DNA of 64,000 nucleotides from Sphingobacteriales bacterium (lineage in GTDB: Bacteria > Bacteroidota > Bacteroidia > UKL13-3). This document shows positions 2,474 through 46,689 of this stretch, one piece after another (within the stretch, counting starts at the first letter, position 1; each line of letters begins with the position of its first letter). The DNA lies in the NCBI GenBank assembly GCA_021299635.1, contig JAJTFA010000002.1, forward strand, positions 249,110 through 313,109, read 5' to 3'. A program made the position numbers and the translations under genes. A model generated the notes under the pieces. That model searched no databases. It was not told the origin of the DNA and saw nothing but the letters and a program-made list of their open reading frames with translations.

Positions 2474-2488
2474 AGTTTTTCATAAAAA

Positions 2489-3514
2489 ATGGGTTTATTT
2501 TGCCCCCTCATGCGTTTGTATAGGTATCTGTATATTTTTTATTGTTTAGGCGTTTCCTCAGCTTATGCCCAAATACTTCCTTCCTTTGGTAATTCAAGAA
2601 CGGGAGGTACCGGCATGCAATTTCTCAAGATTTCCCCGGATGCAAGGTCTATGTCGCTTGCAGGTGCTGCCGTTGCAGTAGCCAATGACGCATCAGCAAT
2701 GTACTGGAATCCGGCAGGCATAACAGGCGTAGATACGGGCAAAGTAAATCTCATGATTTCACATAGCCGCTACTTTGGTGATATCAACGCTAATTATGCA
2801 GGGGCTGTGATTAGAGCAGGACGCCATTCATTTGTTGGTGTTCAGGTTTTTTCCATGGATTATGGAGATATGAAGGAAACAACTGAGTTTGATCCCAGCG
2901 GCACAGGCAGAACATTCGGCATCAACAATTATTTTATCGGCCTTACATACGCCAAGGTATTAACCAATAATTTTAGTTTTGGACTCAATGGCAAATATAC
3001 CAATGAAAGTTTTGCAGGCATTAATGTACATAATGTACTGTTTGATTTAGGCCTTAAATATGACGTGGGCGTAAAGCATACCCGCTTTGGTGTTAACTTC
3101 AGTAATTTTGGCTTAAATGTTAAACCTTCAGGCGGTGTGCAGGTGTTAAAATTTGATGGCATGCAAAACATCAGCAATTTCAGCGATATCTCAGTTCCTG
3201 CATTGTTTCGTTTGGGTATTGCATTTGATCCTGTGCATACCAATGAGCATGTGCTTACTTTAGCCGGACAACTCAATCATCCTACGGATAATAATGAAAC
3301 CTATGTGTTGGCTGCCGAATATAGCTATCTTAAAATTGGTTACCTGAGAACAGGATACGAGTTTGGCTCTGATGAAAATTACATCGGCCCATCAGCAGGA
3401 ATTGGAATGAAAATTCTTCGCAGATTTGGTGGTTTAACCCTTGATTATGGCTTTGTAGCAAAAAACCGTTTAGGATACAACCAACGTATAACCTTAGCAA
3501 TATTGGTCAGATAA
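2489..3514 (+). CDS. T9SS-associated outer-membrane beta-barrel protein, PorQ/PorV family
   Basis: 341 aa with signal peptide (..LGVSSAYAQ). N-terminal motif FLKISPDARSMSLAGAAVAVANDASAMYWNPAGI resembles the conserved PorV/PorQ N-terminus. Remainder is Gly/aromatic rich and beta-barrel-like. The length favours PorQ. Confidence 0.55.
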   Translation: MGLFCPLMRLYRYLYIFYCLGVSSAYAQILPSFGNSRTGGTGMQFLKISPDARSMSLAGAAVAVANDASAMYWNPAGITGVDTGKVNLMISHSRYFGDINANYAGAVIRAGRHSFVGVQVFSMDYGDMKETTEFDPSGTGRTFGINNYFIGLTYAKVLTNNFSFGLNGKYTNESFAGINVHNVLFDLGLKYDVGVKHTRFGVNFSNFGLNVKPSGGVQVLKFDGMQNISNFSDISVPALFRLGIAFDPVHTNEHVLTLAGQLNHPTDNNETYVLAAEYSYLKIGYLRTGYEFGSDENYIGPSAGIGMKILRRFGGLTLDYGFVAKNRLGYNQRITLAILVR

Positions 3515-4762
3515 ATGAACGTAAAAGCAATTCATATATTTTTTGGCATCGCGATTTCTCTCTTGTTCACGTCTTGTTCAGCGCTGTTTGGCAATAAGGA
3601 AGATGAACAGGTGAATGAAATTTTTGTTCAGGGCGCTATAGACCCCAATCTTATTCCTCAAACCGTAGGATACGTTCCTGTTTATCCTTTTTTTCAGGGC
3701 TTCTCAAATCCCATTGATGTTTTTGTAGGATATGATGAATTGGTTTATGTAGTAGATGATAACGGACTAAATATTTTGGACCAAAAAGGTACGAAGTATC
3801 AGAATATTCCAATCCCCGGGGCAACAGATGTTACTCAGGACAGAAGATTGCATACATATGTTTGTGGCAGGGTTGAACTTCCAAGAGGAGCAGGTGGCGC
3901 CCTGGTAAACTTACCTGCAGTTTACCACCTGATGAATACGGCAACGGGAAACTACGTTATTGTAGATACACTCATTCACCCCGATTGCGATGCATCCAGA
4001 GGCGCAACCGCTTTCCGTGGAACCGATGATGAAAAAGTGCAATTCACTGGGCTGGCTACCTTACATGATAATACATTGTATGTAAGTCGAACCGGTCCGC
4101 GTAATGATCCCAATGCATTTTTCAGACCTGATAATGGGATATTATTATTTGATGCCGATGGATTAAATGTGGGTTTTGCAAACGGCCTAACACCCAATTC
4201 CCCTAGTTTAAAATCTGCCATGGGTATATCTGCTATTGCAACGCTGGCAGCACCTCCGCAGCGTCAGCAAGGCATCAATACAGGAAAAAGTTTTATGCTT
4301 ACTCAGGCCGATGCAACACTAAATATTGAATACCGTACCTTACACATAACGGTTTCAGACGATCCGGATGCCGGTACATCATACAACGAAACATCTTCGC
4401 TGCTCAATTACGACTATAGTAAAGGAGATAGATTTTTGTATCAACCTTTTCGGTTTAAAAATCCCGAAGATTGTTTTATTGCACCTGATGCGTTGCAATA
4501 TAGTTTTATTGTTGACAGCGGCACCGACTCTCTTTATATTTTTACGAATCAGGGAATAGAAGGGGTGAATCCGCCTGCAAACTCCGGCCTTAAAAAACAA
4601 GTGGCTGTTTCCTTTGGAGGGCCCGGTATAGATGGTAATTCCGGAGGTCCTTTCAGTTTCAAAGATCCAAGCGGTGTATGTTATTTCCGCAGAATGATTT
4701 TTGTTGCAGACAAAGGCAACAACCGCATTTGTCGTTATATGCTAAGCACCGATCTACAATAA
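3515..4762 (+). CDS. hypothetical lipoprotein with NHL-like beta-propeller repeat at the C-terminus
   Basis: 415 aa. Lipobox LLFTSC. The C-terminal segment IFVADKGNNRICRY resembles an NHL repeat. Starts at the stop codon of the preceding PorQ-like gene. Confidence 0.5.
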   Translation: MNVKAIHIFFGIAISLLFTSCSALFGNKEDEQVNEIFVQGAIDPNLIPQTVGYVPVYPFFQGFSNPIDVFVGYDELVYVVDDNGLNILDQKGTKYQNIPIPGATDVTQDRRLHTYVCGRVELPRGAGGALVNLPAVYHLMNTATGNYVIVDTLIHPDCDASRGATAFRGTDDEKVQFTGLATLHDNTLYVSRTGPRNDPNAFFRPDNGILLFDADGLNVGFANGLTPNSPSLKSAMGISAIATLAAPPQRQQGINTGKSFMLTQADATLNIEYRTLHITVSDDPDAGTSYNETSSLLNYDYSKGDRFLYQPFRFKNPEDCFIAPDALQYSFIVDSGTDSLYIFTNQGIEGVNPPANSGLKKQVAVSFGGPGIDGNSGGPFSFKDPSGVCYFRRMIFVADKGNNRICRYMLSTDLQ

Positions 4763-4776
4763 TAAATTCATGCCAG

Positions 4777-5664
4777 GTGAAATTATTTCGTTCACGCATA
4801 GCTCCTACTCCTAGTGGTTATTTGCATCGCGGAAATTTATTTAACTTTTTACTTACAGCACTGATTACTCGCAGCAATAGCGGTGAATTGCGTTTGCGTA
4901 TTGATGACATGGATGCGCAACGATCCCGGCCGCAATACTTACATGATATTTTTGACACATTAAATTGGCTTGAAATTTCATGGCAACAAGGACCTAAAAA
5001 TGTTTCAGAGCATATCCAGTTTTTTACGCAGTCTAACCGCCTGCAATTGTATGAATCCTTCCTACGGCAATTAATAGAGCGAGCTGAAGTATATGCATGT
5101 ACCTGCTCAAGAAAAGAGCTTAGCGAGGAAGGTCATGCCTTGTATCCTGGCACTTGCAGATTAAAGCAAATACCGCTGAATACCCCACAGGCAGCGTGGC
5201 GTATACATTTGCCTGAAGGCACAATTGTTCGTTGGTTAGATAAAGCGCAAGGAAAAGTTGAGCTGAATCTTTCTCAACTCATGGGTGATTTCATCATCAG
5301 GCGAAAAGACGGTTTGCCCGCTTACCAGGTGGTTTCATTGGTTGACGATTTATTGTATGGAACTACGTTCATTGTTAGAGGTGTTGATTTGCTGCAAAGC
5401 ACAGCTGCACAATTATGGCTCTCGCAAGTTGTACAAAACCCTGACTTTGTGCACACAGGCTTCTATCATCACCCATTGCTGATGCATGCTGATGGAGAGA
5501 AATTATCAAAATCAGTTTCTGCTAATTATTCCAAACCATTGCATGCAACCGAGGCCTCAACTCAAGCAATCATCAGTAGCTTTTGTAGCTGGCTGGGCCA
5601 CACAACAAAAGCAAAAAGTATAGATGAGCTTTTGGGAAAGCAGTCCTCTTTGTTTAGGGTATAA
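4777..5664 (+). CDS. gluQ: glutamyl-Q tRNA(Asp) synthetase (GluRS-like catalytic domain paralog)
   Basis: Class I aaRS HIGH-region motif RIAPTPSGYLHRGNLFNF, ~295 aa with no anticodon-binding domain. The tracked ORF (4678) overlaps the upstream gene. The GTG at 4777 (VKLFRSRIAPTPSG) is the likely start, but this is uncertain. Confidence 0.65.
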   Translation: MKLFRSRIAPTPSGYLHRGNLFNFLLTALITRSNSGELRLRIDDMDAQRSRPQYLHDIFDTLNWLEISWQQGPKNVSEHIQFFTQSNRLQLYESFLRQLIERAEVYACTCSRKELSEEGHALYPGTCRLKQIPLNTPQAAWRIHLPEGTIVRWLDKAQGKVELNLSQLMGDFIIRRKDGLPAYQVVSLVDDLLYGTTFIVRGVDLLQSTAAQLWLSQVVQNPDFVHTGFYHHPLLMHADGEKLSKSVSANYSKPLHATEASTQAIISSFCSWLGHTTKAKSIDELLGKQSSLFRV

Positions 5665-5734: not shown

Positions 5735-6565
5735 ATGCCGCTAGACCAATTACCTGAAGATAACACGGAAGATATTAAGGAAATGAGTTTCTTTGATCAT
5801 ATAGATGAGTTCAGGGGCCATATTGTGCGTTCTGTGCTTGCTGTTCTGGTGCTAAGTATTGTCGCTTTTTTTAATAAATACCTGCTATTTGATGTAATAA
5901 TTTTTGGTCCGCTGCATCTTGATTTCTGGACCTATCGGGCTTTGTGTGAACTATCATACACCTTTACCGGAACTGATTTGTATTGCATAAATGAAATGGG
6001 TTTCGTGCTTTCCAACATAACCATGTCTGGGCAGTTTACGGAGCATTTATTTGTTTCATTTGTTAGTGGTCTTATTTTAGCATTCCCTTTTATTTTATGG
6101 GAGCTGTGGCGCTTTATTAAGCCTGCACTTAGCCACAAGGAAATACGATATGCGCGTGGCCTGGTCTTCTTTAGCTCTATGTTATTTTTTGCGGGTATTT
6201 TATTTGGATATTTTTTCCTCTCACCACTCTCCATTAATTTTTTAGGTTCGTATAAAGTAAGCGAGTTGGTAAGTAATGAAATCAACCTTGATTCGTATGT
6301 TTCATTTATTGCCACACTTACTTTTGCTACAGGTCTTATTTTTGAAATGCCCATTTTGGTCTATTTTCTCAGTAAAATTGGTCTTTTAGGTAGTGGTTGG
6401 ATGTCAAAAAATCGGAGATATGCAATTGTGGTAATTTTAATTCTAGCAGGCTTACTCACACCATCACCTGATATTGCCAGCATGATTCTGATGTTTATAC
6501 CTTTATATGGCTTGTATGAGGCAAGCATACTTGTTGCCAAAGCCGTAGAGCGCAAGAAAGTTTAG
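5735..6565 (+). CDS. tatC: twin-arginine translocase subunit TatC
   Basis: MSFFDHIDEFRGHIVRSVLAVLV... with multiple TM helices. The start was moved to the ATG at 5735 (MPLDQLPED..) inside the longer tracked ORF. Confidence 0.85.
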   Translation: MPLDQLPEDNTEDIKEMSFFDHIDEFRGHIVRSVLAVLVLSIVAFFNKYLLFDVIIFGPLHLDFWTYRALCELSYTFTGTDLYCINEMGFVLSNITMSGQFTEHLFVSFVSGLILAFPFILWELWRFIKPALSHKEIRYARGLVFFSSMLFFAGILFGYFFLSPLSINFLGSYKVSELVSNEINLDSYVSFIATLTFATGLIFEMPILVYFLSKIGLLGSGWMSKNRRYAIVVILILAGLLTPSPDIASMILMFIPLYGLYEASILVAKAVERKKV

Positions 6566-6638
6566 CCGGATCAAAACGATTCTCCTGTGCTAGATAAAAT
6601 AGAATTGTTTTAGATTATATTCGACCAAAAATTAGTTT

Positions 6639-7070
6639 ATGAAAATTGCTTTAGGAGGTGATCATGCCGGATTTTTTTACAAGGAAGAAATAAAAACAAT
6701 GCTTATAACGCTTGGTCATCAGGTGCACGATTTTGGTCCCTTTTCTGACGCCTCTGCTGACTATCCTGATTTTGCTCATCCACTTGCATTATCGGTTGAA
6801 AAGGGCGAATCGGATTTTGGTATTCTTATTTGTGGTAGCGGCAATGGAGTTGCCATTACTGCCAATAAGCATCAAGGAGTAAGAGCAGCACTATGCTGGT
6901 TGGTGGAGCTGGGAGCCCTTGCCAGGCAACATAATAATGCCAATGTTCTGTGTTTGCCGGCACGTTTTATTACACTCGAACTTGCTAAACAAATTACCCA
7001 AGCGTTTATCGAAACTGCTTTTGAGGGCGGAAGGCATGACACCAGGGTAAATAAAATTGCCTGCACTTAA
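6639..7070 (+). CDS. rpiB: ribose-5-phosphate isomerase B
   Basis: MKIALGGDHAGFFYKEEI...ICGSGNGVAITANKHQGVRAAL; RpiB/LacAB family, 143 aa. Confidence 0.85.
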   Translation: MKIALGGDHAGFFYKEEIKTMLITLGHQVHDFGPFSDASADYPDFAHPLALSVEKGESDFGILICGSGNGVAITANKHQGVRAALCWLVELGALARQHNNANVLCLPARFITLELAKQITQAFIETAFEGGRHDTRVNKIACT

Positions 7071-7073
7071 CTC

Positions 7074-7985
7074 ATGAATAATACCGTTGATAATTTGATA
7101 CCATTGCTGCTGCAAGGAGATAAACGTACCCTAGCACGTTGCATTTCTATGGTTGAAAATGGCTATGAAGGTTATGAGGAGTTGCTCAGAAAACTTACGT
7201 TTAATAAATCAACGCCCGTTATAGGAATTACCGGTCCTCCGGGAGCAGGCAAAAGTTCACTTATTGCAGCTTTGGCAAGGCATATTGTGGCAAAACAGAA
7301 AACGCTAGGCATTATAGCCATTGATCCAAGCTCTCCCTTTAATCAAGGCTCTCTTATGGGCGATCGTTTGCGCATGACAGAGCATTTTCTGCATCCATCT
7401 GTTTTTATTAGAAGCATGGCGGGTAGAGGAAGTTTGGGCGGACTTGCTCCTAAAATCTTTGAAGTGGCAGATGTAATAAAAGCAGCAGGATTCGATTATA
7501 TCATCATTGAAACCATAGGTGTTGGCCAAAGCGAAGTTGAAATTGCGGCATTGGCTGATACAACAGTTTTGGTGCTGGTTCCGGAGGCAGGTGATGAAAT
7601 TCAAACCATTAAAAGCGGAGTGATGGAAATTGCAGATATATACGTGCTGAACAAAGCAGACCGAGATGGTGCAGACGGTTTTTTTAAAAATCTTTTTGTG
7701 CTTTCGCATGCTCACACAAGATTGGGTTGGGAAGCTCCGGTTATTAAAACTATTGCCACCAAAGATCAAGGCGTAGATTTATTGTTTGATGCTATACTTA
7801 AACATGCGGAGCATGGCACCGATCAGGATAAAAAGTTGCATCTCCTTGCTGAAAAGGTTTTGCTGATGATTAAAAATCAACGAACAAAAGATATTTCAAT
7901 CAAACAAATACAGTCAGATTTGAAGCAACATGTATCTGAAAAAAACTTTAACCTGTACAGGTATGTTACCAAATATAATAAGTAA
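7074..7985 (+). CDS. meaB: methylmalonyl-CoA mutase-associated G-protein (MeaB/ArgK family GTPase)
   Basis: P-loop GITGPPGAGKSS, ...GVGQSEV..., NKAD motif (VLNKADRDG). No mutase gene is adjacent. Confidence 0.85.
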   Translation: MNNTVDNLIPLLLQGDKRTLARCISMVENGYEGYEELLRKLTFNKSTPVIGITGPPGAGKSSLIAALARHIVAKQKTLGIIAIDPSSPFNQGSLMGDRLRMTEHFLHPSVFIRSMAGRGSLGGLAPKIFEVADVIKAAGFDYIIIETIGVGQSEVEIAALADTTVLVLVPEAGDEIQTIKSGVMEIADIYVLNKADRDGADGFFKNLFVLSHAHTRLGWEAPVIKTIATKDQGVDLLFDAILKHAEHGTDQDKKLHLLAEKVLLMIKNQRTKDISIKQIQSDLKQHVSEKNFNLYRYVTKYNK

Positions 7986-8036
7986 ACAAACCAGCCTCGC
8001 TACAACCTTCACAGAGGTGTTAAAAACAGAAGATTA

Positions 8037-8618
8037 ATGAATATTTGTATCCTTTCAGGCTCGGCAAGAGAAAACAACAATACCATCCGCGTAGCACTTG
8101 CCATAAAAAACCTACTGTTATCACGTCATCAGGTAACACTGGTAGATTTTAGACAGTATGATATACCTTTTATCAATCAGGCTCAGATTATTCCTCAGCA
8201 GCTTTCCTCATTTCAGCAACAATTGGCAAATGGCATGAGAGAGGCGCAATTGGTCATTATCATTTCTCCTGAATACAATTGGAGTACAACACCGGAAATA
8301 CTCAACTTTCTGCATCGTTTTGGCGAAAAGGAATTTGCGTACTTATTTCAAAATAAAGTTTTTTCAATGGTTGGAGTTTCCACAGGAAAGGGGGGTAAAA
8401 CACCTGCCTTGCATTTAACATCTATTCTCAATAAAATCATCAGTTTTTTAAATCTTGATTCAGTGGTTTGTTCGGGAATTTTTGAATCACACTTCACCAA
8501 AGAGGTACTGAATGAAAATGGAGAACAGCTGGGCAATGCCCCATATGAGAATGGCATGAAAAATTATTTGGAATACACCCTGCGTATTGCAGAGCGCTGG
8601 TGCCGCTTAGGCTCGTAA
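8037..8618 (+). CDS. NADPH-dependent FMN reductase-like flavodoxin-fold oxidoreductase
   Basis: MNICILSGSARENNNTIRVALAI... has typical SsuE/NADPH-FMN reductase N-terminal topology. 193 aa. Confidence 0.65.
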   Translation: MNICILSGSARENNNTIRVALAIKNLLLSRHQVTLVDFRQYDIPFINQAQIIPQQLSSFQQQLANGMREAQLVIIISPEYNWSTTPEILNFLHRFGEKEFAYLFQNKVFSMVGVSTGKGGKTPALHLTSILNKIISFLNLDSVVCSGIFESHFTKEVLNENGEQLGNAPYENGMKNYLEYTLRIAERWCRLGS

Positions 8619-9770
8619 GATAATTCTGAAGGTGGTTCCTTTGCCGGTCTCTGATTCTTTAACAAATATTTTCCCTTTGTGGTACTCTTCAATAATGCGT
8701 TTAGCAAGCGAAAGACCGAGTCCCCAGCCCCTTTTTTTAGTGGTGTATCCCGGCTTGAAAACCGTTTTAAATTTTGCTTTAACAATACCCTTACCGGTAT
8801 CTTTCAAATCAATGAGCACTTGCGTTTTTTCGTGCTTTACGGCTATGCAAATTTTCCCGCTTCCTTCCATGGCATCAATTGCGTTTTTACACAGGTTTTC
8901 AATAACCCACTCAAACAGGGGTTTGTTCAGCAACGCAATTTCCTCAGGTTGTGCATCAAGTTCAAAGGAAACAGTTCGGCCTGAACGCGATTGTAAATAA
9001 TCTATGCAGTGTTGTAAAACTTCAGAAACATTTACTGCTTCAAGCACAGGTGCAGAACCTATTTTAGAAAACCTTTCAGTAATTAATTCTAATCGCTGTA
9101 CATCTTTTCCTAGTTCGCTTAATATCTCTTCCTGTTGTTCTTTTGGTGTTTCTCTAATCAGGTTTATCCATCCCATGAGCGAGGAAACAGGGGTTCCCAA
9201 TTGATGCGCAGTTTCTTTACTCATCCCAACCCAAACCCGGTTCTGCTCAGCCCTGCGCGAACTGCTAAATGCTATGTATGATATGAGAATGAAAACAGCA
9301 ATAATGGTTAATTGATAATACGGATATTGCCTTAAACGGGTTAGCTGATAAGAATTTTTATAATATACGTAGTGGTAAAGTTGCTCCCGAGTATTTTCAT
9401 CAAGCAGATACTCAACCTTAATTGGGTCTCGCTGGGCTTTCATAAGTGCAAGTTCATTTTTCAGGTAAGCAGTATCGGTCTCTCTTCTGGTTGAATCCAG
9501 GTTACGGTCGTTAATGATGTTTCCGTTCTCATCAGTTACAATTACAGGAATACTTTCATTATCCATAATAATTGATAAGGCAAAAGCATTTTGCCCTTGC
9601 GAGCTACTTAGCTCCTTAAGTGCATTGGCCCATAGGAGCATTTTTTTCTCTTCCTGCTTTGCCAGGTCATCGGCAAGGGTGCGGGTATACCATAGACTAA
9701 ATACCCCAATACCCATAGCCATGAGCAATAGTAGTCTTTTCCACCAAATTTTCTGATCGTAAGTCCGCAT
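8607..9770 (-). CDS. sensor histidine kinase (orphan; no adjacent response regulator)
   Basis: N-terminal TM, H-box region ...HQLGTPVSSLMGWINLI..., HATPase_c motifs (NLCKNAIDAM..., GKGTTF). ATG at 9768-9770. Confidence 0.8.
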   Translation of the reverse strand: MRTYDQKIWWKRLLLLMAMGIGVFSLWYTRTLADDLAKQEEKKMLLWANALKELSSSQGQNAFALSIIMDNESIPVIVTDENGNIINDRNLDSTRRETDTAYLKNELALMKAQRDPIKVEYLLDENTREQLYHYVYYKNSYQLTRLRQYPYYQLTIIAVFILISYIAFSSSRRAEQNRVWVGMSKETAHQLGTPVSSLMGWINLIRETPKEQQEEILSELGKDVQRLELITERFSKIGSAPVLEAVNVSEVLQHCIDYLQSRSGRTVSFELDAQPEEIALLNKPLFEWVIENLCKNAIDAMEGSGKICIAVKHEKTQVLIDLKDTGKGIVKAKFKTVFKPGYTTKKRGWGLGLSLAKRIIEEYHKGKIFVKESETGKGTTFRIILRA

Positions 9771-9845
9771 GCAATAATATTACCTGATTACAAACATATT
9801 TAATTCAGAAATATAAAGATATTCGTGCAGTTGAATTAACGCAAT

Positions 9846-10607
9846 ATGAAATTATTTATTGAGTTGGCCCAAAAAAAGTATGCGATAGAGGTCTCACAGC
9901 CTCTGGATATATCTATCCCTATGCATTCCGGCACATCTAATCCTAATGCGTTTGGTATACAACCGCCATTATTCGAGCCATATAAGGCAGGAGGTTTTAT
10001 TGGCTCTGTTGCTATGGGCGGCTCGGTTAATTGCGAAAATTTATTTCTAAATGCACATGGCAATGGTACACATACCGAGTGTATAGGTCATATATCAAAA
10101 GAGCGAATTTCTATAAACAGTTGCCTCAAGCAATTTATATTCAGCTGTGAGGTGATTTCTGCAGCGCCCGAGCAAATATCCAATGGTGATTTTGTCATAA
10201 CACTAAAAAAAGTGCAGGAGAAGCTGGTGCATCATTTACCTGAGGCAATTGCTATCAGAAGTTTGCCTAATAACGAAAGTAAAAAACAGGCCATCTATTC
10301 AGGCTATAATCCGCCCTACTTAGAAGCAGAATTATGCTCGTGGCTCAGAGCAAATGGCGTAAAACATCTGTTAATCGATATGCCATCCGTAGACAAGGAA
10401 GAAGATGGAGGGGCCCTTGCATCGCATCATGCTTTTTGGGATTATCCGTTAGCTAAACGTTATGATGCTACCATTACCGAAATGATTTTTTTGCCCGATT
10501 CCATTTCTGATGGCTTATATCTGCTCAATCTTCAAATAGCCTCTCTTGAAACAGATGCCAGCCCTTCTAAACCTGTATTATATAAACTGCAACCATTAGA
10601 AGCATGA
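9846..10607 (+). CDS. cyclase-family protein (kynurenine formamidase-like)
   Basis: Motif NAHGNGTHTECIGH corresponds to the HxGTHxDxPxH cyclase-family signature. 253 aa. Confidence 0.6.
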   Translation: MKLFIELAQKKYAIEVSQPLDISIPMHSGTSNPNAFGIQPPLFEPYKAGGFIGSVAMGGSVNCENLFLNAHGNGTHTECIGHISKERISINSCLKQFIFSCEVISAAPEQISNGDFVITLKKVQEKLVHHLPEAIAIRSLPNNESKKQAIYSGYNPPYLEAELCSWLRANGVKHLLIDMPSVDKEEDGGALASHHAFWDYPLAKRYDATITEMIFLPDSISDGLYLLNLQIASLETDASPSKPVLYKLQPLEA

Positions 10608-11668
10608 TAAAAGAAGATTCGGAAGAATTTGATATTGGTGAGGAAGGTACCGAGCAGGAGTTATATGAGCACCACCGCATTGTAGTAGATAAGGGGCAAT
10701 CGCTGTTGCGCATTGATAAGTATCTAATGCACCGGCTACAAAATGCAAGCCGCACCAAAATACAGGCCGCTGCTGATGCTGGTTGTATTATTGTAAATGA
10801 GAAGGCGGTTAAATCAAGTTATAAGGTAAAACCTGCTGATGTTATTTCCATTGTTTTACCCCACCCTCCAAAGGATACGGAAATCATTCCAGAAAATATT
10901 CCTCTTCAGATTTTATATGAAGATGATGATTTGCTTATCGTAAATAAAATTGCGGGAATGGTTGTGCATCCGGGTTATAATAACGTAAGCGGTACTTTGG
11001 TAAATGCACTTTCTTGGCATTTTAAAGATTTGCCATTTGCCAAAGAAAATAATATCAGACCCGGCCTGGTGCACCGCATTGATAAAAACACTTCAGGTTT
11101 GCTGGTGGTTGCAAAGAATGAATTTGCCATGACTCATCTGGCAAAGCAGTTTTATTATCATACCATCAAGCGCTCATATATGGCATTGGCCTGGGGAGAT
11201 TTTGAAAACGATGAAGGAACGGTAACGGGTTATATTGGCAGAAGTACCAAGGATCGTAGGGTATTTACTTTATATGATACAGAAGAAAAAGGCAAATGGA
11301 GTATAACACATTTTAAAGTACTTGAGCGACTTAGTAATGTTACCCTCATTGAGTGTCGACTGGAAACGGGCCGAACACATCAAATCCGGGTGCACATGAA
11401 ATCCATTGGTCATCCATTATTTGCTGATGAAACATACGGAGGCGATTATGCAGTTAAAGGTACTACGTTTACCAAATACAAGCAGTTTGTAGAAAATTGT
11501 TTTACGCTTTGTCCGCGTCAGGCTTTGCATGCGCGCTCACTGGGATTTATTCATCCCAAAACAGGAAAGGAAGTTTATTTTGAAGCTCCCTTGCCGGATG
11601 ATATGGCAAATGTGATAGAAAAATGGAAAGCGTATCATCTGTCAGTTTTAAGTAAACAAATAGACTAG
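10604..11668 (+). CDS. rluD: RluA-family 23S rRNA pseudouridine synthase (RluD-like) with S4 domain
   Basis: S4-like N-terminus, catalytic motif HRIDKNTSGLLVVAKN, ...HQIRVHM... Confidence 0.85.
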   Translation: MIKEDSEEFDIGEEGTEQELYEHHRIVVDKGQSLLRIDKYLMHRLQNASRTKIQAAADAGCIIVNEKAVKSSYKVKPADVISIVLPHPPKDTEIIPENIPLQILYEDDDLLIVNKIAGMVVHPGYNNVSGTLVNALSWHFKDLPFAKENNIRPGLVHRIDKNTSGLLVVAKNEFAMTHLAKQFYYHTIKRSYMALAWGDFENDEGTVTGYIGRSTKDRRVFTLYDTEEKGKWSITHFKVLERLSNVTLIECRLETGRTHQIRVHMKSIGHPLFADETYGGDYAVKGTTFTKYKQFVENCFTLCPRQALHARSLGFIHPKTGKEVYFEAPLPDDMANVIEKWKAYHLSVLSKQID

Positions 11669-11754
11669 CAGAATAATTCAGTTGTCTCTTATAGAATATT
11701 TTTTACATTTGATTAACCCATAATTGTTACTTCTATAAATCAATCCTAAACGTT

Positions 11755-12567
11755 ATGAAAAAATTCTTGCTTTCATTTTTTATTGTTTCCGTTGGCAGTA
11801 TTTGCCTGTCAGTATTTACCGGAGATGCCTACCTGCATTCCAATACCGGTGGATCACCGTCAGCAAGCGGTTGCAGTTGTCATAGTGCAACCAATCATAA
11901 TGATGCGGCTACTTTTATAAGGATAGAGGATAGCCAGGGGAATGCAGTAACAAGCTATACGCCCGGTACTACTTACAAAATTATTTTCGGCACTGCTAAA
12001 GCAGGTAAGGTAAAGTTTGGATTTGCTTTTACTGCCGATCAGGGAACCTTAGCTGTAATACCAGGTAGTACCAAAATAAAAAAATCATCCACGTACCTAA
12101 CTCACACTTCTTCCGGAACGGCCGCACCAGTGCCTGACAGCGCAAAATGGGAAGCCAACTGGACTGCCCCTGCCTCTGCAACAGCAGTTACTTTTAATCT
12201 AGATGTTAATGCTACCAATAATAACAATGATGCTGATCCGGGGGATTTAATTTATAACAAATCAGTTACACTTACAAAATCATCAAACACAGGTATTGCT
12301 GAATCGGGAATATCTATGCTAAGTATTTTCCCTTCACCAGCACGCTCATTTGTTTACGTTAATTATGAATTAAAACAAAGCAATAATGTGATGATTAGCC
12401 TAAAGGATTTGCAAGGTAAAACAGTTAGCATCCTGTTTGATGAAAATGAATCAGCAGGTAAGCAAGTGCATAAATTCACTTTTGAAAACAATACTTCCAG
12501 CGGTTTTTATTTTGTTGAAATAAAGGCAGGTTCATTGGTTAAAACCCAGAAGATACTCATTCAGTAA
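11755..12567 (+). CDS. secreted hypothetical protein with T9SS C-terminal sorting domain
   Basis: Signal peptide. C-terminal ~80 aa (ISMLSIFPSPARSFVYVNYELKQ...FYFVEIKAGSLVKTQKILIQ) is a typical type-A Por_Secre_tail. N-terminal region contains GCSCH. Confidence 0.6.
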   Translation: MKKFLLSFFIVSVGSICLSVFTGDAYLHSNTGGSPSASGCSCHSATNHNDAATFIRIEDSQGNAVTSYTPGTTYKIIFGTAKAGKVKFGFAFTADQGTLAVIPGSTKIKKSSTYLTHTSSGTAAPVPDSAKWEANWTAPASATAVTFNLDVNATNNNNDADPGDLIYNKSVTLTKSSNTGIAESGISMLSIFPSPARSFVYVNYELKQSNNVMISLKDLQGKTVSILFDENESAGKQVHKFTFENNTSSGFYFVEIKAGSLVKTQKILIQ

Positions 12568-12590
12568 CCTATTATTCTATTCATACCGAA

Positions 12591-12627
12591 CCCTGTTGCA
12601 AACTGATGTTGCAACAGGGTTTTTTTA
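12591..12627 (+). terminator. rho-independent terminator after the T9SS cargo gene
   Basis: ccctgttgcaa-actgatg-ttgcaacaggg followed by a T7 run. It overlaps the tracked upstream extension of the following ORF, which supports the downstream ATG 12642 as the real start. Confidence 0.7.
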
Positions 12628-12641
12628 TTTATTCTTGTATC

Positions 12642-13436
12642 ATGGATTTAGAGAAAATAGTATTGGAAGCAGGCGATTTATGCAAACAGGTTGGAGCATT
12701 TATTCTGAGTGAGTCAAAGACATTCGACCGAAATCGCATAGAGGAAAAAAGTTTAAATCAATTGGTTTCTTATGTAGATAAATCGGCAGAAGAAATGTTG
12801 GTTAAAGGGATGAATGCATTATTGCCGGGCGCAGGTTTTATTACAGAAGAAGCAACCATTGCTACGCAGGAAAAGGAATGGATGTGGATTATAGATCCGT
12901 TGGATGGCACAACTAACTTCATGCATGGTTTGCCTGTATACAGCATCAGCATTGGGCTTATGCAAGGTAAGCAAATGATGGCAGGCCTTGTGTATGAAAT
13001 AAATCGCAGTGAATTGTTTTATGCCTGGCATAACAGTCCTGCATATCTCAATGGTGAAGTAATTAGGGTAAGTGTAAATAATAAACTTTCAGATGCATTG
13101 CTGGCAACAGGTTTTCCTTATTATGATTTTAATTTGATGCAGCAATATTTAGGGGCATTACAAGAATTTTTAAAGGGCTCACGCGGCATGCGCAGAATGG
13201 GGAGTGCAGCAGTTGATCTGGCTTATGTAGCATGCGGACGTTTTGATGGTTTTTTTGAATATGGTTTAAGTCCATGGGATGTGGCAGGTGGGGCATTTAT
13301 AGTGCAAAGGGCAGGCGGTGTGGTAAGTGATTTTGGCAAAGCAGATAATTTCCTGTTCGGAAAAGAAATCATTGCTTGCGCTCCGGGCGTTTATGAGGCA
13401 CTTACAAATATCATCAGTAAAAAGTTTGGCAGATAG
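12642..13436 (+). CDS. suhB: inositol monophosphatase family protein
   Basis: MDLEKIVLEAG...WIIDPLDGTTNF...; IMPase motifs. Start moved downstream of the terminator hairpin. Confidence 0.85.
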   Translation: MDLEKIVLEAGDLCKQVGAFILSESKTFDRNRIEEKSLNQLVSYVDKSAEEMLVKGMNALLPGAGFITEEATIATQEKEWMWIIDPLDGTTNFMHGLPVYSISIGLMQGKQMMAGLVYEINRSELFYAWHNSPAYLNGEVIRVSVNNKLSDALLATGFPYYDFNLMQQYLGALQEFLKGSRGMRRMGSAAVDLAYVACGRFDGFFEYGLSPWDVAGGAFIVQRAGGVVSDFGKADNFLFGKEIIACAPGVYEALTNIISKKFGR

Positions 13437-13816
13437 CCGCTTTTAATTTCATAATTTAAATGAGTAGCTGTATTTCTATTTTAATTACCGATAAAACCTT
13501 ACCAATGGCGGTATTGTTTGTTATTACAATCATACGGCTCGAATAAATCGTTTCCGCATATTTTTGATTCCTTATTGTGTAATATAATACACAAAATGAC
13601 GAAACTTATTTTTTTCTACAGCTGCACAAAGTTCACCAAATATGGATAAAGATTGAACTTTGTGTTTCAGATGGGAAAAGTTAGCCCCTAATTTATTTTC
13701 TTCATCAAACTTTTTAAATATTAGTTCTGTTAAACCATGTACTTGAAGACTGATATCAAGTAAAAAAACGTGGAGATCCGAAAATCCTTAAGAGTAGGCC
13801 AACTAAAAAAATAAAT

Positions 13817-14533
13817 ATGGAACATTTAAAAATTGCCAGCGACAATTATGTTGCTTTCACGTTCTTCATCGGAACAATGGCCATGATGGCTGCCTCGGTT
13901 TTCTTTTTCTTCGAATTAAACAACACTTCGAGCAAATGGAGAACTTCAGTATTGGTTTCAGGTCTTATCACTTTCATTGCAGCAGTTCACTACTACTACA
14001 TGAGAGGTTACAATCTTGAAACCGGTGATTCACCAACTTTCTTCAGGTATGTAGATTGGATTCTTACTGTACCTTTAATGTGTGTTGAATTTTATTTAAT
14101 TACCAAAAAGGCCGGTGCTAAAGTTGCCCTTCTTTGGAAACTCATTTTTGCCTCTCTGGTGATGCTGGTTACAGGTTACTTCGGTGAAACCATCGATCGT
14201 GATAACAGCGTAATGTGGGGCGTTATTTCAGGTCTTGCTTATTTCTACATTGCATACTTGGTATGGTTTGGCGAAGTTGCTCACCTTTCACAAAATGCTG
14301 GCCCTCAAGTTGCAAAGGCAACACGCGTTCTTGCTTGGTTCGTATTAGTGGGTTGGGCCATCTATCCATTAGGATATATTCTTGGAACTCCTGGAGGCTT
14401 GTTTGGTGTTCAGTTGGTTGCTGATCCTGCTGCCGCTTCACACTCTATGGACATAGTATACAATATTGCTGATGCGATTAATAAAATCGGTTTTGGTTTA
14501 GTTATCTATACTTTAAGTAGAAACGAAGACTAA
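13817..14533 (+). CDS. proteorhodopsin-type light-driven proton pump (microbial type-1 rhodopsin)
   Basis: 238 aa, 7 TM. Helix C RYVDWILTVPLMCVEFYL gives the D80/T84/E91 DTE motif, with Met88 at the PR-105 tuning site. His58 is present. Helix G YNIADAINKIGFGL carries D219 and the Schiff-base K223. Strong eye-alignment to green PR (ETGDSPTFFRY.DW.LTVPL..EFYLI). Confidence 0.9.
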   Translation: MEHLKIASDNYVAFTFFIGTMAMMAASVFFFFELNNTSSKWRTSVLVSGLITFIAAVHYYYMRGYNLETGDSPTFFRYVDWILTVPLMCVEFYLITKKAGAKVALLWKLIFASLVMLVTGYFGETIDRDNSVMWGVISGLAYFYIAYLVWFGEVAHLSQNAGPQVAKATRVLAWFVLVGWAIYPLGYILGTPGGLFGVQLVADPAAASHSMDIVYNIADAINKIGFGLVIYTLSRNED

Positions 14534-14560
14534 GATTTTAATATCTGAATCTATAACGAA

Positions 14561-14600
14561 AAGGGAGGATGTGCTTTTAAAGAACTACCTCCCTTTTTCA
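14561..14600 (+). terminator. putative terminator or attenuating hairpin between the rhodopsin and crtY-blh genes
   Basis: aagggagg-(19 nt loop)-cctccctt followed by ttttt. The loop is longer than ideal. Confidence 0.45.
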
Positions 14601-14674
14601 TTTTAACTCAATAATCGAAAAAAGTATAAAACCATCTCAGATGGTTACCGCCATAATTTCATCCAATAAAATTA

Positions 14675-16696
14675 GTGCAAGCTACACAAACCATATCAGA
14701 AAATAATGTATCTGCGTGCGAGTATGATTATGTTTTTTGCGGTACAGGTGCTTCCGCATCGCTTTTATTATTGGAACTTCATCAAAATAATTTATTACAA
14801 TACGCAAATGTTTTACTCATTGATCCGGATAAGAAGGATAAGCGCGATAAAACATTCTGTTTTTGGGCAGATGCGGATGATCCGATTTCGGTTGACTTAA
14901 AATCACTCATCTCACATGCATGGGATCATGTTGCTCTGGCTGGTGAAGAAATTGAACCCATCTGGCCAATGCGTTACAACCATATTTCAAGCATTGATTT
15001 ATACAATCAGGTTCACAGATTAACCCAACAATATCAATGGCACAAGATTAATACGTGCGCTGACGAAGTTGGCTCTGATGAACAAGGGCCTTTTGTGTGT
15101 TGCAATGGAGAAAAGATTAGGGCTAAATATATTTTCGATTCGAGGCCCCCTGTTTATCATCCTCCTCAAGAAGGTGAAACACATATATCACAAAGTTTCG
15201 TGGGATGGATGATTGAAACGGAACAAGAAATTAAAAAACCAAATGCATTTCGGTTTATGGATTTTCAGATTGAGCAGCAAGGTTCAACGCAGTTTGTCTA
15301 TGTACTTCCGTTCTCTGCGCGTAAGGCCTTGGTTGAAGTTACCCGTTTTGGTGCAGAAACCATAAACCATACACAGGCCGAAAATTTACTTGCCGATTAT
15401 ATTCAGCGGAATTTCGGTGCGTATACTGTTGCAGATGTTGAAACAGGCTGCATCCCTATGAGCAATACCGTAATAGAAAGCAATGCTGTATCAGGTATTG
15501 TTTTATTGGGTGCCCGTAATTATCATATAAAACCAAGTACAGGCTATGCATTTAAAAACATGTATTACCATGCACGTAACATTGCCTCTGCAATTAAACA
15601 TAATAAGCCCGTTGAGTTATTAAACAAAACACATGTTAATGCCCACCACCACGGACGCCACTCATTTTATGATGGCTTGCTGCTTGATATATTAAAGAAC
15701 AAGCCACAGGAAGGAAAGCGCATTTTTGAGGCTTTGCTTGCAAAGGTGGATACAAAAAAGATATTAAATTTTTTAGACGAAAAAACCGGCATCGCAACCG
15801 ATATTTCAATCTTTAGTCAGTTGCCTTGGCAGCCTTTTATCAGCACCCTATTGAGCAGAAGTTTTGTGTACCCTTGGTTTAGGCCATTGCTATTAACACT
15901 TATGACCTGTTTGCTTGTTCTGGCTGGAAATTATTCAGCCATTCAAAACTATCTGGCCTATGGGCTATTTTTTGCAGGTCTGGTTGCGGTTGGCATTCCG
16001 CATGGAGCAGTAGATCATTTGTTGGAAACCGGAAAATGGAATAGGAAAGGTGCACCTGTATTTATCATCAGATACCTGATGTTAGCTGCAGGTATGGGTT
16101 TATTATGGTATGCATTACCAGGAGTGGCGCTTGCTGTTTTTCTGGCCTATTCTTCCTGGCATTTCGGTCAGGCTGATGGTAAAAAATGGAATTTCACCGA
16201 ATCAGTATCCTTCTTATGGGGTCTATCAGTCTTATTTTATATATTAGGTACACACCTTCAGGAAACCAATGTTATTCTCATGTCAATGGGTAAAGTTAGT
16301 TTGCCCTTTGCATGTTCTGTTTGGGCATTGCTGCCCTGGTTTTTATGGGCTTTGTATCACAAGCAAACCTCATTTTTTCTCACCTTGTGTTGGCTCATGC
16401 TTTCTTCCCAACTCCCTTTGCTTATAGCTTTTGGAATATATTTTATTGGTCAGCATAGCCTAAACGGATGGCAGGATATCCGCAGACACCTGCAGCTAAG
16501 CCATAGCAGAATATGGCTTCACTCAGTACCTTTTCATGCCGGAGCCTGGTTGCTGCTTGCAGGCTTTTTATTTCTTTGGCCCTTGGCCTTTCCTCATAAC
16601 GATATTAACCAATGGGCTGTATTCTTTGTCTTTATTGCCTGCATAAGCTTTCCTCATACCATTTATATGAATGTGGTATATAGGAAGAAGGGGTAA
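14675..16696 (+). CDS. bifunctional fusion: lycopene beta-cyclase (CrtY-type, FAD) N-terminal domain plus Brp/Blh beta-carotene 15,15'-dioxygenase C-terminal domain
   Basis: Single uninterrupted 673-aa ORF with GTG start. The N-terminal ~380 aa has a Rossmann motif (YDYVFCGTGASASLLLLEL) and a lycopene-cyclase-like body. The C-terminal ~290 aa is polytopic membrane with Blh His motifs IPHGAVDH, SWHFGQADG and GQHSLNGWQD. Confidence 0.8.
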   Translation: MQATQTISENNVSACEYDYVFCGTGASASLLLLELHQNNLLQYANVLLIDPDKKDKRDKTFCFWADADDPISVDLKSLISHAWDHVALAGEEIEPIWPMRYNHISSIDLYNQVHRLTQQYQWHKINTCADEVGSDEQGPFVCCNGEKIRAKYIFDSRPPVYHPPQEGETHISQSFVGWMIETEQEIKKPNAFRFMDFQIEQQGSTQFVYVLPFSARKALVEVTRFGAETINHTQAENLLADYIQRNFGAYTVADVETGCIPMSNTVIESNAVSGIVLLGARNYHIKPSTGYAFKNMYYHARNIASAIKHNKPVELLNKTHVNAHHHGRHSFYDGLLLDILKNKPQEGKRIFEALLAKVDTKKILNFLDEKTGIATDISIFSQLPWQPFISTLLSRSFVYPWFRPLLLTLMTCLLVLAGNYSAIQNYLAYGLFFAGLVAVGIPHGAVDHLLETGKWNRKGAPVFIIRYLMLAAGMGLLWYALPGVALAVFLAYSSWHFGQADGKKWNFTESVSFLWGLSVLFYILGTHLQETNVILMSMGKVSLPFACSVWALLPWFLWALYHKQTSFFLTLCWLMLSSQLPLLIAFGIYFIGQHSLNGWQDIRRHLQLSHSRIWLHSVPFHAGAWLLLAGFLFLWPLAFPHNDINQWAVFFVFIACISFPHTIYMNVVYRKKG

Positions 16697-16800
16697 AATA
16701 TATTATTGTAATTACATAGATTGAAGATTTCCTTCGAAAAGCATTGACAATTCTAACACTTGCAATAATGAGCAGATATGCATTAAATTTGCACCCACTT

Positions 16801-17136
16801 ATGAATAGCATGATTACTGTAACCGAAAAAGCAAAATCTCGTATTGTTGAACTCAAAAAGGAGTCGAACCTTACAGAGGCGCATTTTTTACGTGTAGGCG
16901 TAGAAAGCGGAGGTTGCTCAGGATTAAGCTATAAGCTTGATTTTGACAATGCTGTAACAGACGGAGATGAAGTGATTGATTATAATGGGGTTAGGTTAGT
17001 AACCGATAAACGCAGCGTATTGTATTTGTTTGGAACCGAACTTGATTTTACTGATGGATTGAATGGCAAAGGCTTCACCTTCAATAATCCCAATGCCAGC
17101 CGCACATGCAGTTGCGGAGAGAGTTTCTCGGTATAA
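16801..17136 (+). CDS. iron-sulfur cluster insertion/assembly protein (HesB/IscA/ErpA family)
   Basis: MNSMITVTEKAKSRIVEL...GGCSGLSY...CSCGESFSV; conserved Cys triad. Start moved to the ATG at 16801. Confidence 0.8.
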   Translation: MNSMITVTEKAKSRIVELKKESNLTEAHFLRVGVESGGCSGLSYKLDFDNAVTDGDEVIDYNGVRLVTDKRSVLYLFGTELDFTDGLNGKGFTFNNPNASRTCSCGESFSV

Positions 17137-41392: not shown

Positions 41393-41406
41393 ATTTGCTG
41401 CAGGTT

Positions 41407-42018
41407 TTAGGGTTTGGCATAAGGCAGCTCTTCAATTTTAGATAGGCGGTAATATGTTTCCAATCCACCTGCACCAATGCTGCCGCTATTTCCCAGTTGC
41501 AGGATATTGGATTCATTTACTAAATCCTGCTCCAGTATAATTTCTTGCACTTTACCAATCATTAAAATGGTTCCGTTTGCTTTAACAGGAATTTCCTCCT
41601 CTAATGTGAGCCCTATTTTTACGAGGGATTCTTTTACATAGGGAGCTTTGATAGCTGGTGTATATTCCGGTGTAAGCCCTGTTGCTTCAAACTCACTGAT
41701 GGCATAACGGGCAGAGGTTTGATGAGCCTGCCTGTAAATGCCTTCGTGCACATGGTTAATGGTAAAGCAACCCGTTTGTTTAAGATATTCGTAGGTATGA
41801 CGTTCCACACTTACAGGACGCATAATAAATCCCATGAGTGGTGGATTGGCACCGATATGAACAACTGAATTGAAAATAGCCAGATTGGTGATGCCGGCCT
41901 CATTGATGGTACCTATGAGATTGGCTGCGCGGATGCCGGGCAATGAATTGATTAAATTGGTTCTGGGTTGTTTATCCATTCCCAATATATCTGATAAAGT
42001 AATTATGGTTCTACTCAT
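41407..42018 (-). CDS. flavin reductase-like (FMN-binding split-barrel) protein
   Basis: 203 aa with Flavin_Reduct-like domain (..LIGTINEAGITNLAIFNSVVHIGANPPLMGFIMRP..). ATG confirmed at 42016-42018. Confidence 0.65.
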   Translation of the reverse strand: MSRTIITLSDILGMDKQPRTNLINSLPGIRAANLIGTINEAGITNLAIFNSVVHIGANPPLMGFIMRPVSVERHTYEYLKQTGCFTINHVHEGIYRQAHQTSARYAISEFEATGLTPEYTPAIKAPYVKESLVKIGLTLEEEIPVKANGTILMIGKVQEIILEQDLVNESNILQLGNSGSIGAGGLETYYRLSKIEELPYAKP

Positions 42019-42025
42019 GTATGGC

Positions 42026-42712: not shown

Positions 42713-42732
42713 ATACAAGTAACATCCTTTAA

Positions 42733-46499: not shown

Positions 46500-46689
46500 C
46501 AAGGGAAAATACGGTTTATTCTTAATGTTTGCTTAAAAAAATAATATTAAGAGAAATTAAAGAAGTCTGTAATGCCTGATTTTAAACGCTTTTTAAGATT
46601 TTTATAATCTGATTACATATCATCAAGAGTCTATGGCAAAGAAAGCATGTAGGATTTCATAACTTTGAAAAAGCTAATTATTAAAGCTT

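Follow-up and report, generated by a model that had tools for sequence, protein, structure and literature searches.

Can one gene behind a bacterial rhodopsin supply both of the enzymes that finish the synthesis of retinal, or have two neighbouring genes been joined by an error of assembly? The question is raised by a 64,000-nt stretch of contig JAJTFA010000002.1 (positions 249,110 to 313,109, forward strand) from the Sphingobacteriales bacterium assembly GCA_021299635.1, hereafter the window, in which a single open reading frame (ORF) joins a lycopene cyclase-like (CrtY-type) half to a half of the Brp/Blh beta-carotene 15,15'-dioxygenase family. We infer from the sequence, with a probability of about 0.78, that its product is a bifunctional membrane enzyme catalysing the final two steps in the synthesis of retinal for the rhodopsin whose gene lies upstream.

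The ORF (Table 1) starts with GTG, ends with TAA and has no internal stops in translation; its GTG is aligned with the ATG of an 89% identical relative (locus L005), which supports this start. PF05834 and PF15461 are the only Pfam families detected in the product, which has no CrtI or CrtB domains. The first-pass annotation of this DNA had described an uninterrupted 673-aa frame holding both CrtY and Blh and lying directly downstream of the rhodopsin gene, and this description holds: the Blh motifs that it quoted are all present (IPHGAVDH at aa 441–448, SWHFGQAD at aa 494–501 and GQHSLNGWQD at aa 592–601), each half has its Pfam match, the frame is open in more than 80 assemblies, and a Bac_rhodopsin ORF lies on the same strand, separated from the fusion start by a spacer of 141 nt. 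Its division of the chain into a cyclase-like part with a dinucleotide motif (residues 1 to ~380) and a polytopic membrane Blh domain (residues ~390–673) also agrees with the domain matches given below.

Table 1. Coordinates of the features discussed, in the window and in the related loci that use genetic code 25
Sequence	Feature	Coordinates	Strand	Details
Window	Rhodopsin gene	13817..14533	+	238 aa; Pfam Bac_rhodopsin PF01036, 142.1 bits
Window	Terminator-like hairpin	14558..14598	+	11-bp stem GAAAAGGGAGG/CCTCCCTTTTT(C), T-rich tail to ~14606; directly 3' of rhodopsin stop
Window	Perfect 7-bp palindrome AACCATCTCAGATGGTT	14630..14646	+	29 nt upstream of fusion start
Window	Fusion ORF	14675..16696	+	673 aa + stop; predicted lycopene cyclase, linker transmembrane helix, Brp/Blh dioxygenase
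Window	Dinucleotide-binding motif YDYVFCGTGASASLLL	14723–14770	+	aa 17–32 of fusion
Window	Lycopene cyclase domain, CrtY-type	14726..15847	+	aa 18–391, Pfam
Window	FLEET-equivalent Glu E221	15335–15337	+	Cyclase half
Window	Extra transmembrane helix TM0, FRPLLLTLMTCLLVL	15878..15922	+	aa 402–416; AlphaFold2 helix
Window	Brp/Blh beta-carotene 15,15'-dioxygenase core	15938..16693	+	aa 422–673, nine predicted transmembrane helices
Window	Invariant His of Blh core	H443 16001–16003, H496 16160–16162, H594 16454–16456, H661 16655–16657	+	
Window	IscA/ErpA-type iron–sulphur biogenesis gene	16744–17136	+	Fe-S_biosyn PF01521, 72 bits; starts 47 nt past fusion stop
L019	Fusion	151/379–2370		
L019	crtE-like	2379–3272		
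L019	crtB	3283–4122		
L019	crtI	4133–5596		
L025 and L060	Fusion	9974–11992		
L025 and L060	crtB	12081–12920		
L025 and L060	crtI	12931–14394		
L060	Rhodopsin gene	8982–9731		
L025	Rhodopsin gene	14689–15498		
L044	Rhodopsin gene	4737–5579		
L044	Fusion	5743–7794		
L044	crtB	7781–8620		
L044	crtI	8630–10093		

The N-terminal half matches the Lycopene_cycl profile (PF05834) with 150.6 bits, against a cutoff of 23.4, over profile positions 1–378 of 380. It has the fold of flavoproteins related to p-hydroxybenzoate hydroxylase (PHBH) and geranylgeranyl reductase, with an N-terminal dinucleotide motif of the flavin adenine dinucleotide (FAD) type, and in a tblastn search of plasmids it matched annotated lycopene cyclases, including crtY of Pantoea, over the entire domain. 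We aligned it with CrtY from the crtE-X-Y-I-B-Z cluster of Pantoea agglomerans, three stand-alone relatives and a Persicobacter homologue. The residues invariant in these six sequences are D18, G23 and G25 of the Rossmann motif, F63, W83, Y101, Q173/F175/G177, D196, F207/Y209/L211/P212, E221/T223, E256/G258/P261 and T289/G290/Y291. The LVE(221)VT segment of the fusion is aligned to LIEDT of Pantoea CrtY and thus corresponds to the FLEET-type motif, whose first Glu is reported to be critical for beta-cyclase activity and beta-ring formation (PMC10381880, PMC12016392). E221 and T223, like the other cyclase-specific motifs, are invariant among 22 aligned fusion proteins and are the majority residues across 90 fusion clusters, and the fusion consensus has all main motifs in common with the stand-alone relatives. 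Because the Pfam match runs end to end and all the invariant residues are shared with Pantoea CrtY, assignment to the lycopene cyclase family is supported over a generic FAD oxidoreductase, a possibility that the first-pass annotation had named as fatal to its claim and that neither the Pfam match nor the FLEET-equivalent Glu bears out.

The C-terminal half scores 112.9 bits with PF15461 (BCD) at aa 435–667, against a cutoff of 28. With TIGR03753, whose cutoff is 95.25, the full protein scores 112.8 bits and the C-terminal half alone 116.3. The AlphaFold2 (AF2) model has nine long helices in this part, from 422–439 through 643–671, and nine transmembrane (TM) helices are likewise predicted for stand-alone Blh, for which H21, H78, H188 and H256 of the protein from uncultured marine bacterium 66A03 (Q4PNI0) have been proposed as iron ligands (preprint 10.64898/2026.08.06.743266). 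The four histidines H443, H496, H594 and H661 of the fusion are invariant in 22 of 22 proteins, as are H448 and H527, and the spacing of the four (53/98/67) resembles that of the proposed ligands in Q4PNI0 (57/110/68). A tblastn search of plasmids with this half gave one weak, unannotated match in Methylobacterium and no stand-alone Blh.

Between the two halves lies a hydrophobic helix, here called TM0, which the first-pass annotation overlooked; it falls between the end of one Pfam match (aa 391) and the beginning of the other (aa 435), outside both domain models. If H443 corresponds to His-21 of Q4PNI0, the part equivalent to a stand-alone Blh would start near aa 422 of the fusion and TM0 would be an extra helix. 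In an alignment of 22 fusion proteins with overall identities of 47–68% the junction is nearly gap-free, and the distance from FLDE, the last cyclase motif, to PHGA, the first Blh motif, is 76 aa in all but two of them (71 and 75 aa). TM0 itself has no gaps and a mean majority fraction of 0.58, compared with 0.62 for the cyclase domain and 0.64 for the Blh core. The AF2 model gives this block a predicted local distance difference test score (pLDDT) of 90–91; for the full two-domain chain the mean pLDDT is 85.2 and the predicted template modelling score (pTM) 0.78. In a ten-helix model with the N-terminal domain and the C-terminus inside, the lysines and arginines, averaged over the 22 proteins, number 12.7 in the predicted cytoplasmic loops and 1.7 in the outer loops; their distribution around TM0 fits a crossing from inside to outside, and that of the rest fits alternating membrane sides. 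In this predicted topology the Blh core would start at the outer membrane face, and we propose that TM0 acts as the topology adaptor by which a cytoplasmic cyclase is joined to a Blh core that starts facing outward. The constant linker, the conserved adaptor helix and the high pTM together suggest that the geometry is fixed, in which case the intermediate might more readily be handed over directly.

A survey of related genomes, which the first-pass annotation had recommended, showed that the architecture is kept across the clusters and genomes examined. A search of 5.8 billion proteins gave 1162 matches, and all of the 120 clusters listed (47–99% identity, 599–714 aa) carry both Pfam domains. 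In a search with the N-terminal domain only, against 1.84 billion cluster representatives, 90 of the top 150 are of fusion length, each from a different 50%-identity cluster. A scan of genomes, one per species, found a relative in 470, and the analysis of loci was made on the best 80 of these together with the window. The gene is full length or nearly so in these 80, save where a contig end cuts it, and by our own ORF calls both halves are in a single ORF in every standard-code locus. By their record titles, the 80 are nearly all uncultured metagenome-assembled genomes (MAGs) from lakes, ponds, rivers and estuaries, assigned to Flavobacteriales (Schleiferiaceae, Crocinitomicaceae and Cryomorphaceae), Chitinophagales/Saprospiraceae, Cytophagales and unclassified Bacteroidota; the closest, at 89% identity, is the Bacteroidia MAG isolate ME2016-09-23. 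No relative of the fusion was found among the viral contigs searched. These comparative data confirm the fusion as a real, conserved and selected architecture, widespread in MAGs of freshwater Bacteroidota and by no means rare, being the usual arrangement in a large set of them.

Some of the titles are implausible, with lake MAGs bearing the names of cultured soil or clinical species such as Chitinophaga pinensis and Chryseobacterium gleum, and the taxon labels are not to be trusted as they stand. A contig titled uncultured Comamonadaceae (CAZKRL010000007.1, locus L061) carries a 46% identical fusion beside a Bacteroidota-type rhodopsin that is 92% identical to the one in the window.

In one MAG-type contig it would be plausible a priori that adjacent crtY and blh genes had been merged by a frameshift, arising in sequencing or assembly, or by the loss of a stop codon. 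However, more than 80 assemblies made independently, from many lakes, show the frame uninterrupted, as do the 120 listed clusters down to 47% identity, the junction is gap-free, constant in length and provided with a conserved extra helix, and the gene looks split only where in-frame TGA codons occur, in genomes that translate TGA as Gly. The probability of such an artefact is thus negligible, and we consider it ruled out.

Those apparent splits come from three loci titled Candidatus Gracilibacteria (L019, L025 and L060) and an unclassified MAG with 29% GC (L044), in which the fusion contains in-frame TGA codons. A split gene was rejected for all four, their TGA being read as Gly under genetic code 25. 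Of the 14 TGA codons in the fusion of L044, seven fall at columns with Gly as the most frequent residue, and four of these seven at columns in which every homologue that has a residue has Gly, including the Rossmann GxG; none falls at a Trp column. When their CrtI is compared with that of Pantoea, TGA is aligned to Gly at 10 of 19 positions (L060 and L019) and 13 of 25 (L044), and nowhere to Trp. Since the TGA codons fall on Gly positions, these are genuine code-25 genomes. The heavy recoding of the genes (19–25 TGA codons in crtI) points to an island long resident there, as opposed to contamination; L060 and L044 have 16 TGA positions in crtI in common.

Translated with table 25, the gene neighbours of the fusion in these genomes include genes for phytoene synthase and phytoene desaturase (SQS_PSY, 153.8 bits, and Amino_oxidase, 102.8 bits, respectively); Pfam was run on crtB and crtI of L060, and those of the other loci were identified from their near identity in sequence. 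A rhodopsin (130.9–150.7 bits) is also present in three of the loci, and L019 alone has a polyprenyl synthase (149.6 bits). Within the 12–22 kb available per locus, the fusion is the only candidate for either cyclisation or cleavage. Of the indirect evidence that both halves of the fusion may be functional, these islands are the strongest, and code-25 bacteria of the candidate phyla radiation appear from their gene content to be self-sufficient for retinal. In contrast, rhodopsins of Saccharibacteria have been reported to depend on retinal from the host (Jaffe et al., 2022, as cited in PMC9948471).

In the mechanism that we propose, the N-terminal, cytoplasmic, FAD-binding domain of CrtY type would work at the inner membrane face, cyclising membrane-dissolved lycopene via gamma-carotene to beta-carotene. 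The rigid linker of fixed length contains TM0, which would take the chain across the membrane from the cytoplasmic side to the outer one, at which the Blh core would begin. The nine-helix Brp/Blh domain, with a predicted four-His non-haem iron site, would take up the product from the adjoining cyclase and cleave its 15,15' double bond, giving two all-trans-retinal molecules to be released into the membrane for the opsin. According to published accounts, Blh cleaves gamma- and beta-carotene, in vitro and in Escherichia coli, and does not cleave lycopene, so that cyclisation must precede cleavage; the same sources state that how strongly Blh is expressed determines the fate of beta-carotene, either cleavage or passage to downstream carotenoids. 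Direct hand-over would shield beta-carotene from competing enzymes such as hydroxylases.

Several observations weigh against a bifunctional, channelling enzyme. A profile search of the N-terminal half, as proposed in the first-pass annotation, came out mixed: the Pfam cutoff was passed and those of the NCBIfam cyclase models were missed by a wide distance (TIGR01790, 89.5 vs 209.5 bits; TIGR01789, 44.3 vs 215.2 bits). Mono- and bicyclases are inseparable by sequence, and the histidines were mapped onto Q4PNI0 by spacing and invariance, not by residue-level alignment. In about 20 of the 80 loci the available flanks contain no rhodopsin gene, six of these loci having ~10 kb on each side, and the window and most of the related loci have no crtB or crtI nearby. 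Finally, we infer channelling from two features, the rigidity of the linker and the pTM, and from these only.

The NCBIfam result bears on the possibility that the N-terminal domain is no longer a cyclase and has become a flavin-dependent helper of Blh, keeping its iron ferrous or docking the carotenoid, while a separate CrtY is encoded elsewhere. Such a role would suit a fold shared with FAD-dependent reductases and monooxygenases, and the rest of the pathway must in any case lie elsewhere in a genome like that of the window. Ten stand-alone relatives (376–417 aa) fail TIGR01790 in the same way, with 67–111 bits; therefore, the shortfall is a property of the whole branch and says nothing against a cyclase, and we file the domain as a member of the Pfam family, not as an equivalog of proteobacterial CrtY. 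Moreover, the cyclase motifs and the FLEET-equivalent Glu are kept throughout the fusions, and the code-25 islands place the fusion, as the sole candidate cyclase, beside crtB and crtI and mostly a rhodopsin. We therefore regard the loss of cyclase activity as very improbable. Somewhat less so, and still improbable, is a lycopene beta-monocyclase, from which gamma-carotene would be cleaved to one retinal and an acyclic analogue, or which would top up a pathway of monocyclic carotenoids. Many Bacteroidota make monocyclic carotenoids, and CrtYm, from a myxol-producing flavobacterium, is a monocyclase of CrtY type; the activity of Blh on gamma-carotene and the limits of sequence in telling the two kinds apart also leave room for it. 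On the other hand, half of the substrate would be lost with a monocyclase, and the chromophore formed would not be the native one. Pantoea CrtY, a bicyclase, has the same Rossmann and FLEET-type motifs, although they do not discriminate, and no second cyclase that could complete the cyclisation lies in the DNA available for the code-25 islands.

If both activities are present, the fusion might do no more than secure 1:1 co-expression and co-localisation in the membrane in streamlined genomes, with no kinetic channelling. Enzymes of consecutive pathway steps are commonly found fused, in many cases simply as a device of co-regulation. Furthermore, fusion and fission seem easy in this family: in a crude neighbour-joining tree, the N-terminal domains of 90 fusions stand opposite a clade of 32 stand-alone cyclases, and 19 short proteins, many with natural-looking C-termini, are scattered among the fusions. 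(With genuine-looking stand-alone cyclases so interleaved, we do not claim a single origin of the fusion.) The constant length of the linker, its conservation at about the level of the catalytic domains and the high pTM of the modelled chain argue for a fixed geometry as opposed to a loose tether. We take co-expression without channelling as a serious possibility, though one short of even odds. The most far-reaching version of the bifunctional enzyme, a channelling machine of fixed geometry that would take up lycopene from the membrane and release only retinal, would serve as the main route in freshwater Bacteroidota and would have been carried with crtB, crtI and the opsin gene into code-25 bacteria, seems to us, as a whole, less likely than not. 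The bifunctional enzyme as such, whether or not it channels, remains our preferred explanation.

The rhodopsin gene is the only strongly recurrent neighbour of the fusion (~60 of the 80 loci), almost always directly upstream on the same strand with a gap of 18–260 nt, and downstream in four; the next commonest, encoding a photolyase/cryptochrome, is found in 14. Rhodopsin and fusion are thus a two-gene module in varying genomic surroundings. The RYVDWILTVPLMCVEF stretch of the window rhodopsin contains D80/T84/E91 and M88, and K223 follows further on; we take these to be, respectively, the DTE motif of a proton pump, the spectral-tuning position (green-tuned) and the Schiff-base Lys. The rhodopsin evolves much more slowly than the fusion: over 53 loci its identity to that of the window has a median of 90.3%, as compared with 48.3% for the N-terminal half and 51.5% for the C-terminal half of the fusion, and 45 of the 48 loci with a rhodopsin at 85% identity or more have an N-terminal domain below 60%. 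This gap in rates could reflect a very strong constraint on the opsin or its replacement by recombination. The loci that have no rhodopsin within ~10 kb on either side are L003/L004 (fusion P0119, 643 aa, on a 942-kb contig), L007, L018, L040, L042 and L066; there, either the opsin is encoded elsewhere in the genome or retinal, or another apocarotenoid, is put to some other use.

Among the standard-code loci of the best 80, neither crtB or crtI nor a second cyclase or second blh was found in the available flanks. For the window itself, the first-pass annotation had reported no crtE, crtB or crtI, and we found none either: the 30 ORFs of at least 150 aa outside ~4.6–26 kb were scanned for SQS_PSY and Amino_oxidase, with a 2386-aa ORF (55821–62981) left out, and the annotated syntenic locus L001, which covers ~4.6–26 kb, has neither family. 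The window likewise has no second cyclase and no second blh.

In the spacer between the two genes, the terminator-like hairpin (Table 1) has a stem conserved in L005 and L001 and a variable loop. The segment 14531–14680 folds with –30.5 kcal/mol (z = –3.67 vs shuffles); a scan with the terminator consensus missed the hairpin because its loop exceeds 8 nt. The hairpin suggests partial read-through, by which the enzyme would be expressed well below the rhodopsin. The palindrome is partly conserved in L005 and not in L001. In a promoter scan, sigma-70-like sites were not above the shuffle expectation, and 71 sites of the Bacteroidetes type TAnnTTTG were found in place of the 87 expected, none of them in the spacer. 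Hence, no promoter is claimed.

The IscA-like gene downstream of the fusion was considered as a partner delivering iron to Blh and set aside, since it is conserved only in the closest syntenic loci and looks like a plain neighbour. The only gene for isoprenoid precursors seen in the window is dxs (33977–35899, minus strand), 17 kb from the fusion, which encodes 1-deoxy-D-xylulose-5-phosphate synthase, the first enzyme of the methylerythritol phosphate (MEP) pathway. An operon-like run on the minus strand (39857–46502) encodes a flavin reductase, a short-chain dehydrogenase, a geranylgeranyl-reductase-like FAD protein, a methyltransferase, a type III polyketide synthase and a UbiA prenyltransferase, with a photolyase-related DPRP gene (39857–41392) downstream; it looks like a cluster for a prenylated or alkylated phenolic lipid or a quinone. 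Its geranylgeranyl-reductase-like protein has a weak Lycopene_cycl match confined to the Rossmann region and the N-terminal part of the profile.

In the databases, the full-length proteins are named "lycopene beta-cyclase" (JGI/IMG) or "hypothetical protein" (NCBI, e.g. KOY84469.1 and MBU3662039.1) and the name Brp/Blh is given to fragments only. A survey in which each gene receives a single function may therefore count abundant freshwater Bacteroidota as having no blh and misjudge which organisms make retinal. By fixing a peripheral flavoprotein cyclase relative to a membrane iron dioxygenase, the rigid-linker fusion would offer a structural target and a direct test of channelling; no solved structure closely matching either half was found. 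Microbial production of retinal and vitamin A co-expresses crtY and blh and has trouble with flux partitioning, for which a natural single-chain enzyme would be a candidate part. The presence of the fusion in a linked retinal gene set of genomes with TGA = Gly points clearly to transfer of the pathway into a lineage with reduced genomes.

Compared with stand-alone Blh such as Q4PNI0, the fusion has a core of the same family (PF15461/TIGR03753) with the same predicted number of helices and a rhodopsin gene next to it; unlike there, this core is the C-terminal half of a 673-aa protein and is preceded by a cyclase and by TM0. Since the matches to the Blh family models start only downstream of TM0, at aa 432–435, we assume that stand-alone Blh has no such helix. 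With CrtY of Pantoea and the stand-alone relatives (~380–400 aa, presumably the CrtY of Bacteroidota) it shares the full-length Lycopene_cycl match, the Rossmann motif and the motifs TWxF(W/H), Q(S/A)FVG, MD(F/A), FVYxLPFS...L(V/I)E.T, E.G.(I/L)P and P(S/T)TGY, whereas the identity of its N-terminal domain is only 22% to Pantoea CrtY and 30–41% to the nearest stand-alone relatives. In contrast to a separate, peripheral CrtY, the cyclase is covalently tied to a membrane enzyme and, in the window, lies outside a crt operon.

In the classical operon of proteorhodopsin (PR), PR-crtE-crtI-crtB-crtY-blh, the opsin gene is likewise linked to genes for its chromophore, and the code-25 loci, the only ones with a linked set of this kind, come closest to it: all four have the fusion together with crtB and crtI, three have a rhodopsin as well, and L019 alone adds a crtE-like gene. 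The window and most Bacteroidota loci differ from it in linking only rhodopsin and fusion, with crtY and blh as one gene. The first-pass annotation had stated that crtY and blh are separate genes in characterised PR photosystems, which is so in the published systems examined; a published mention of "blh-crtY" denotes gene order and not a fusion. It had also known of no characterisation of the fusion, and searches aimed at it in the searchable literature, with subscription-only papers outside their scope, indeed found no description of a bacterial CrtY-Blh fusion. The protein is far from rare, however, being widespread in the databases.

Parallels are known from eukaryotes: the four-domain CrtI-CrtB-CrtYc/d-Blh protein of Thecamonas trahens and the CrtIBY of thraustochytrids (Rius et al., 2023, PMC10016063). 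As in the fusion described here, the T. trahens protein has a cyclase upstream of Blh in one chain and has been read as a retinal-making fusion. CrtIBY and CrtIBY-Blh, however, contain CrtI, CrtB and an unrelated, membrane-integral cyclase (CrtYc/d), whereas the bacterial fusion uses the soluble flavoprotein type of CrtY (PF05834), which would need an adaptor helix. The bacterial fusion is independent of the eukaryotic Blh fusion and convergent with it. The difference from known systems lies in the architecture: the two halves come from well-known families, the pathway is a textbook one, and this is no new kind of system.

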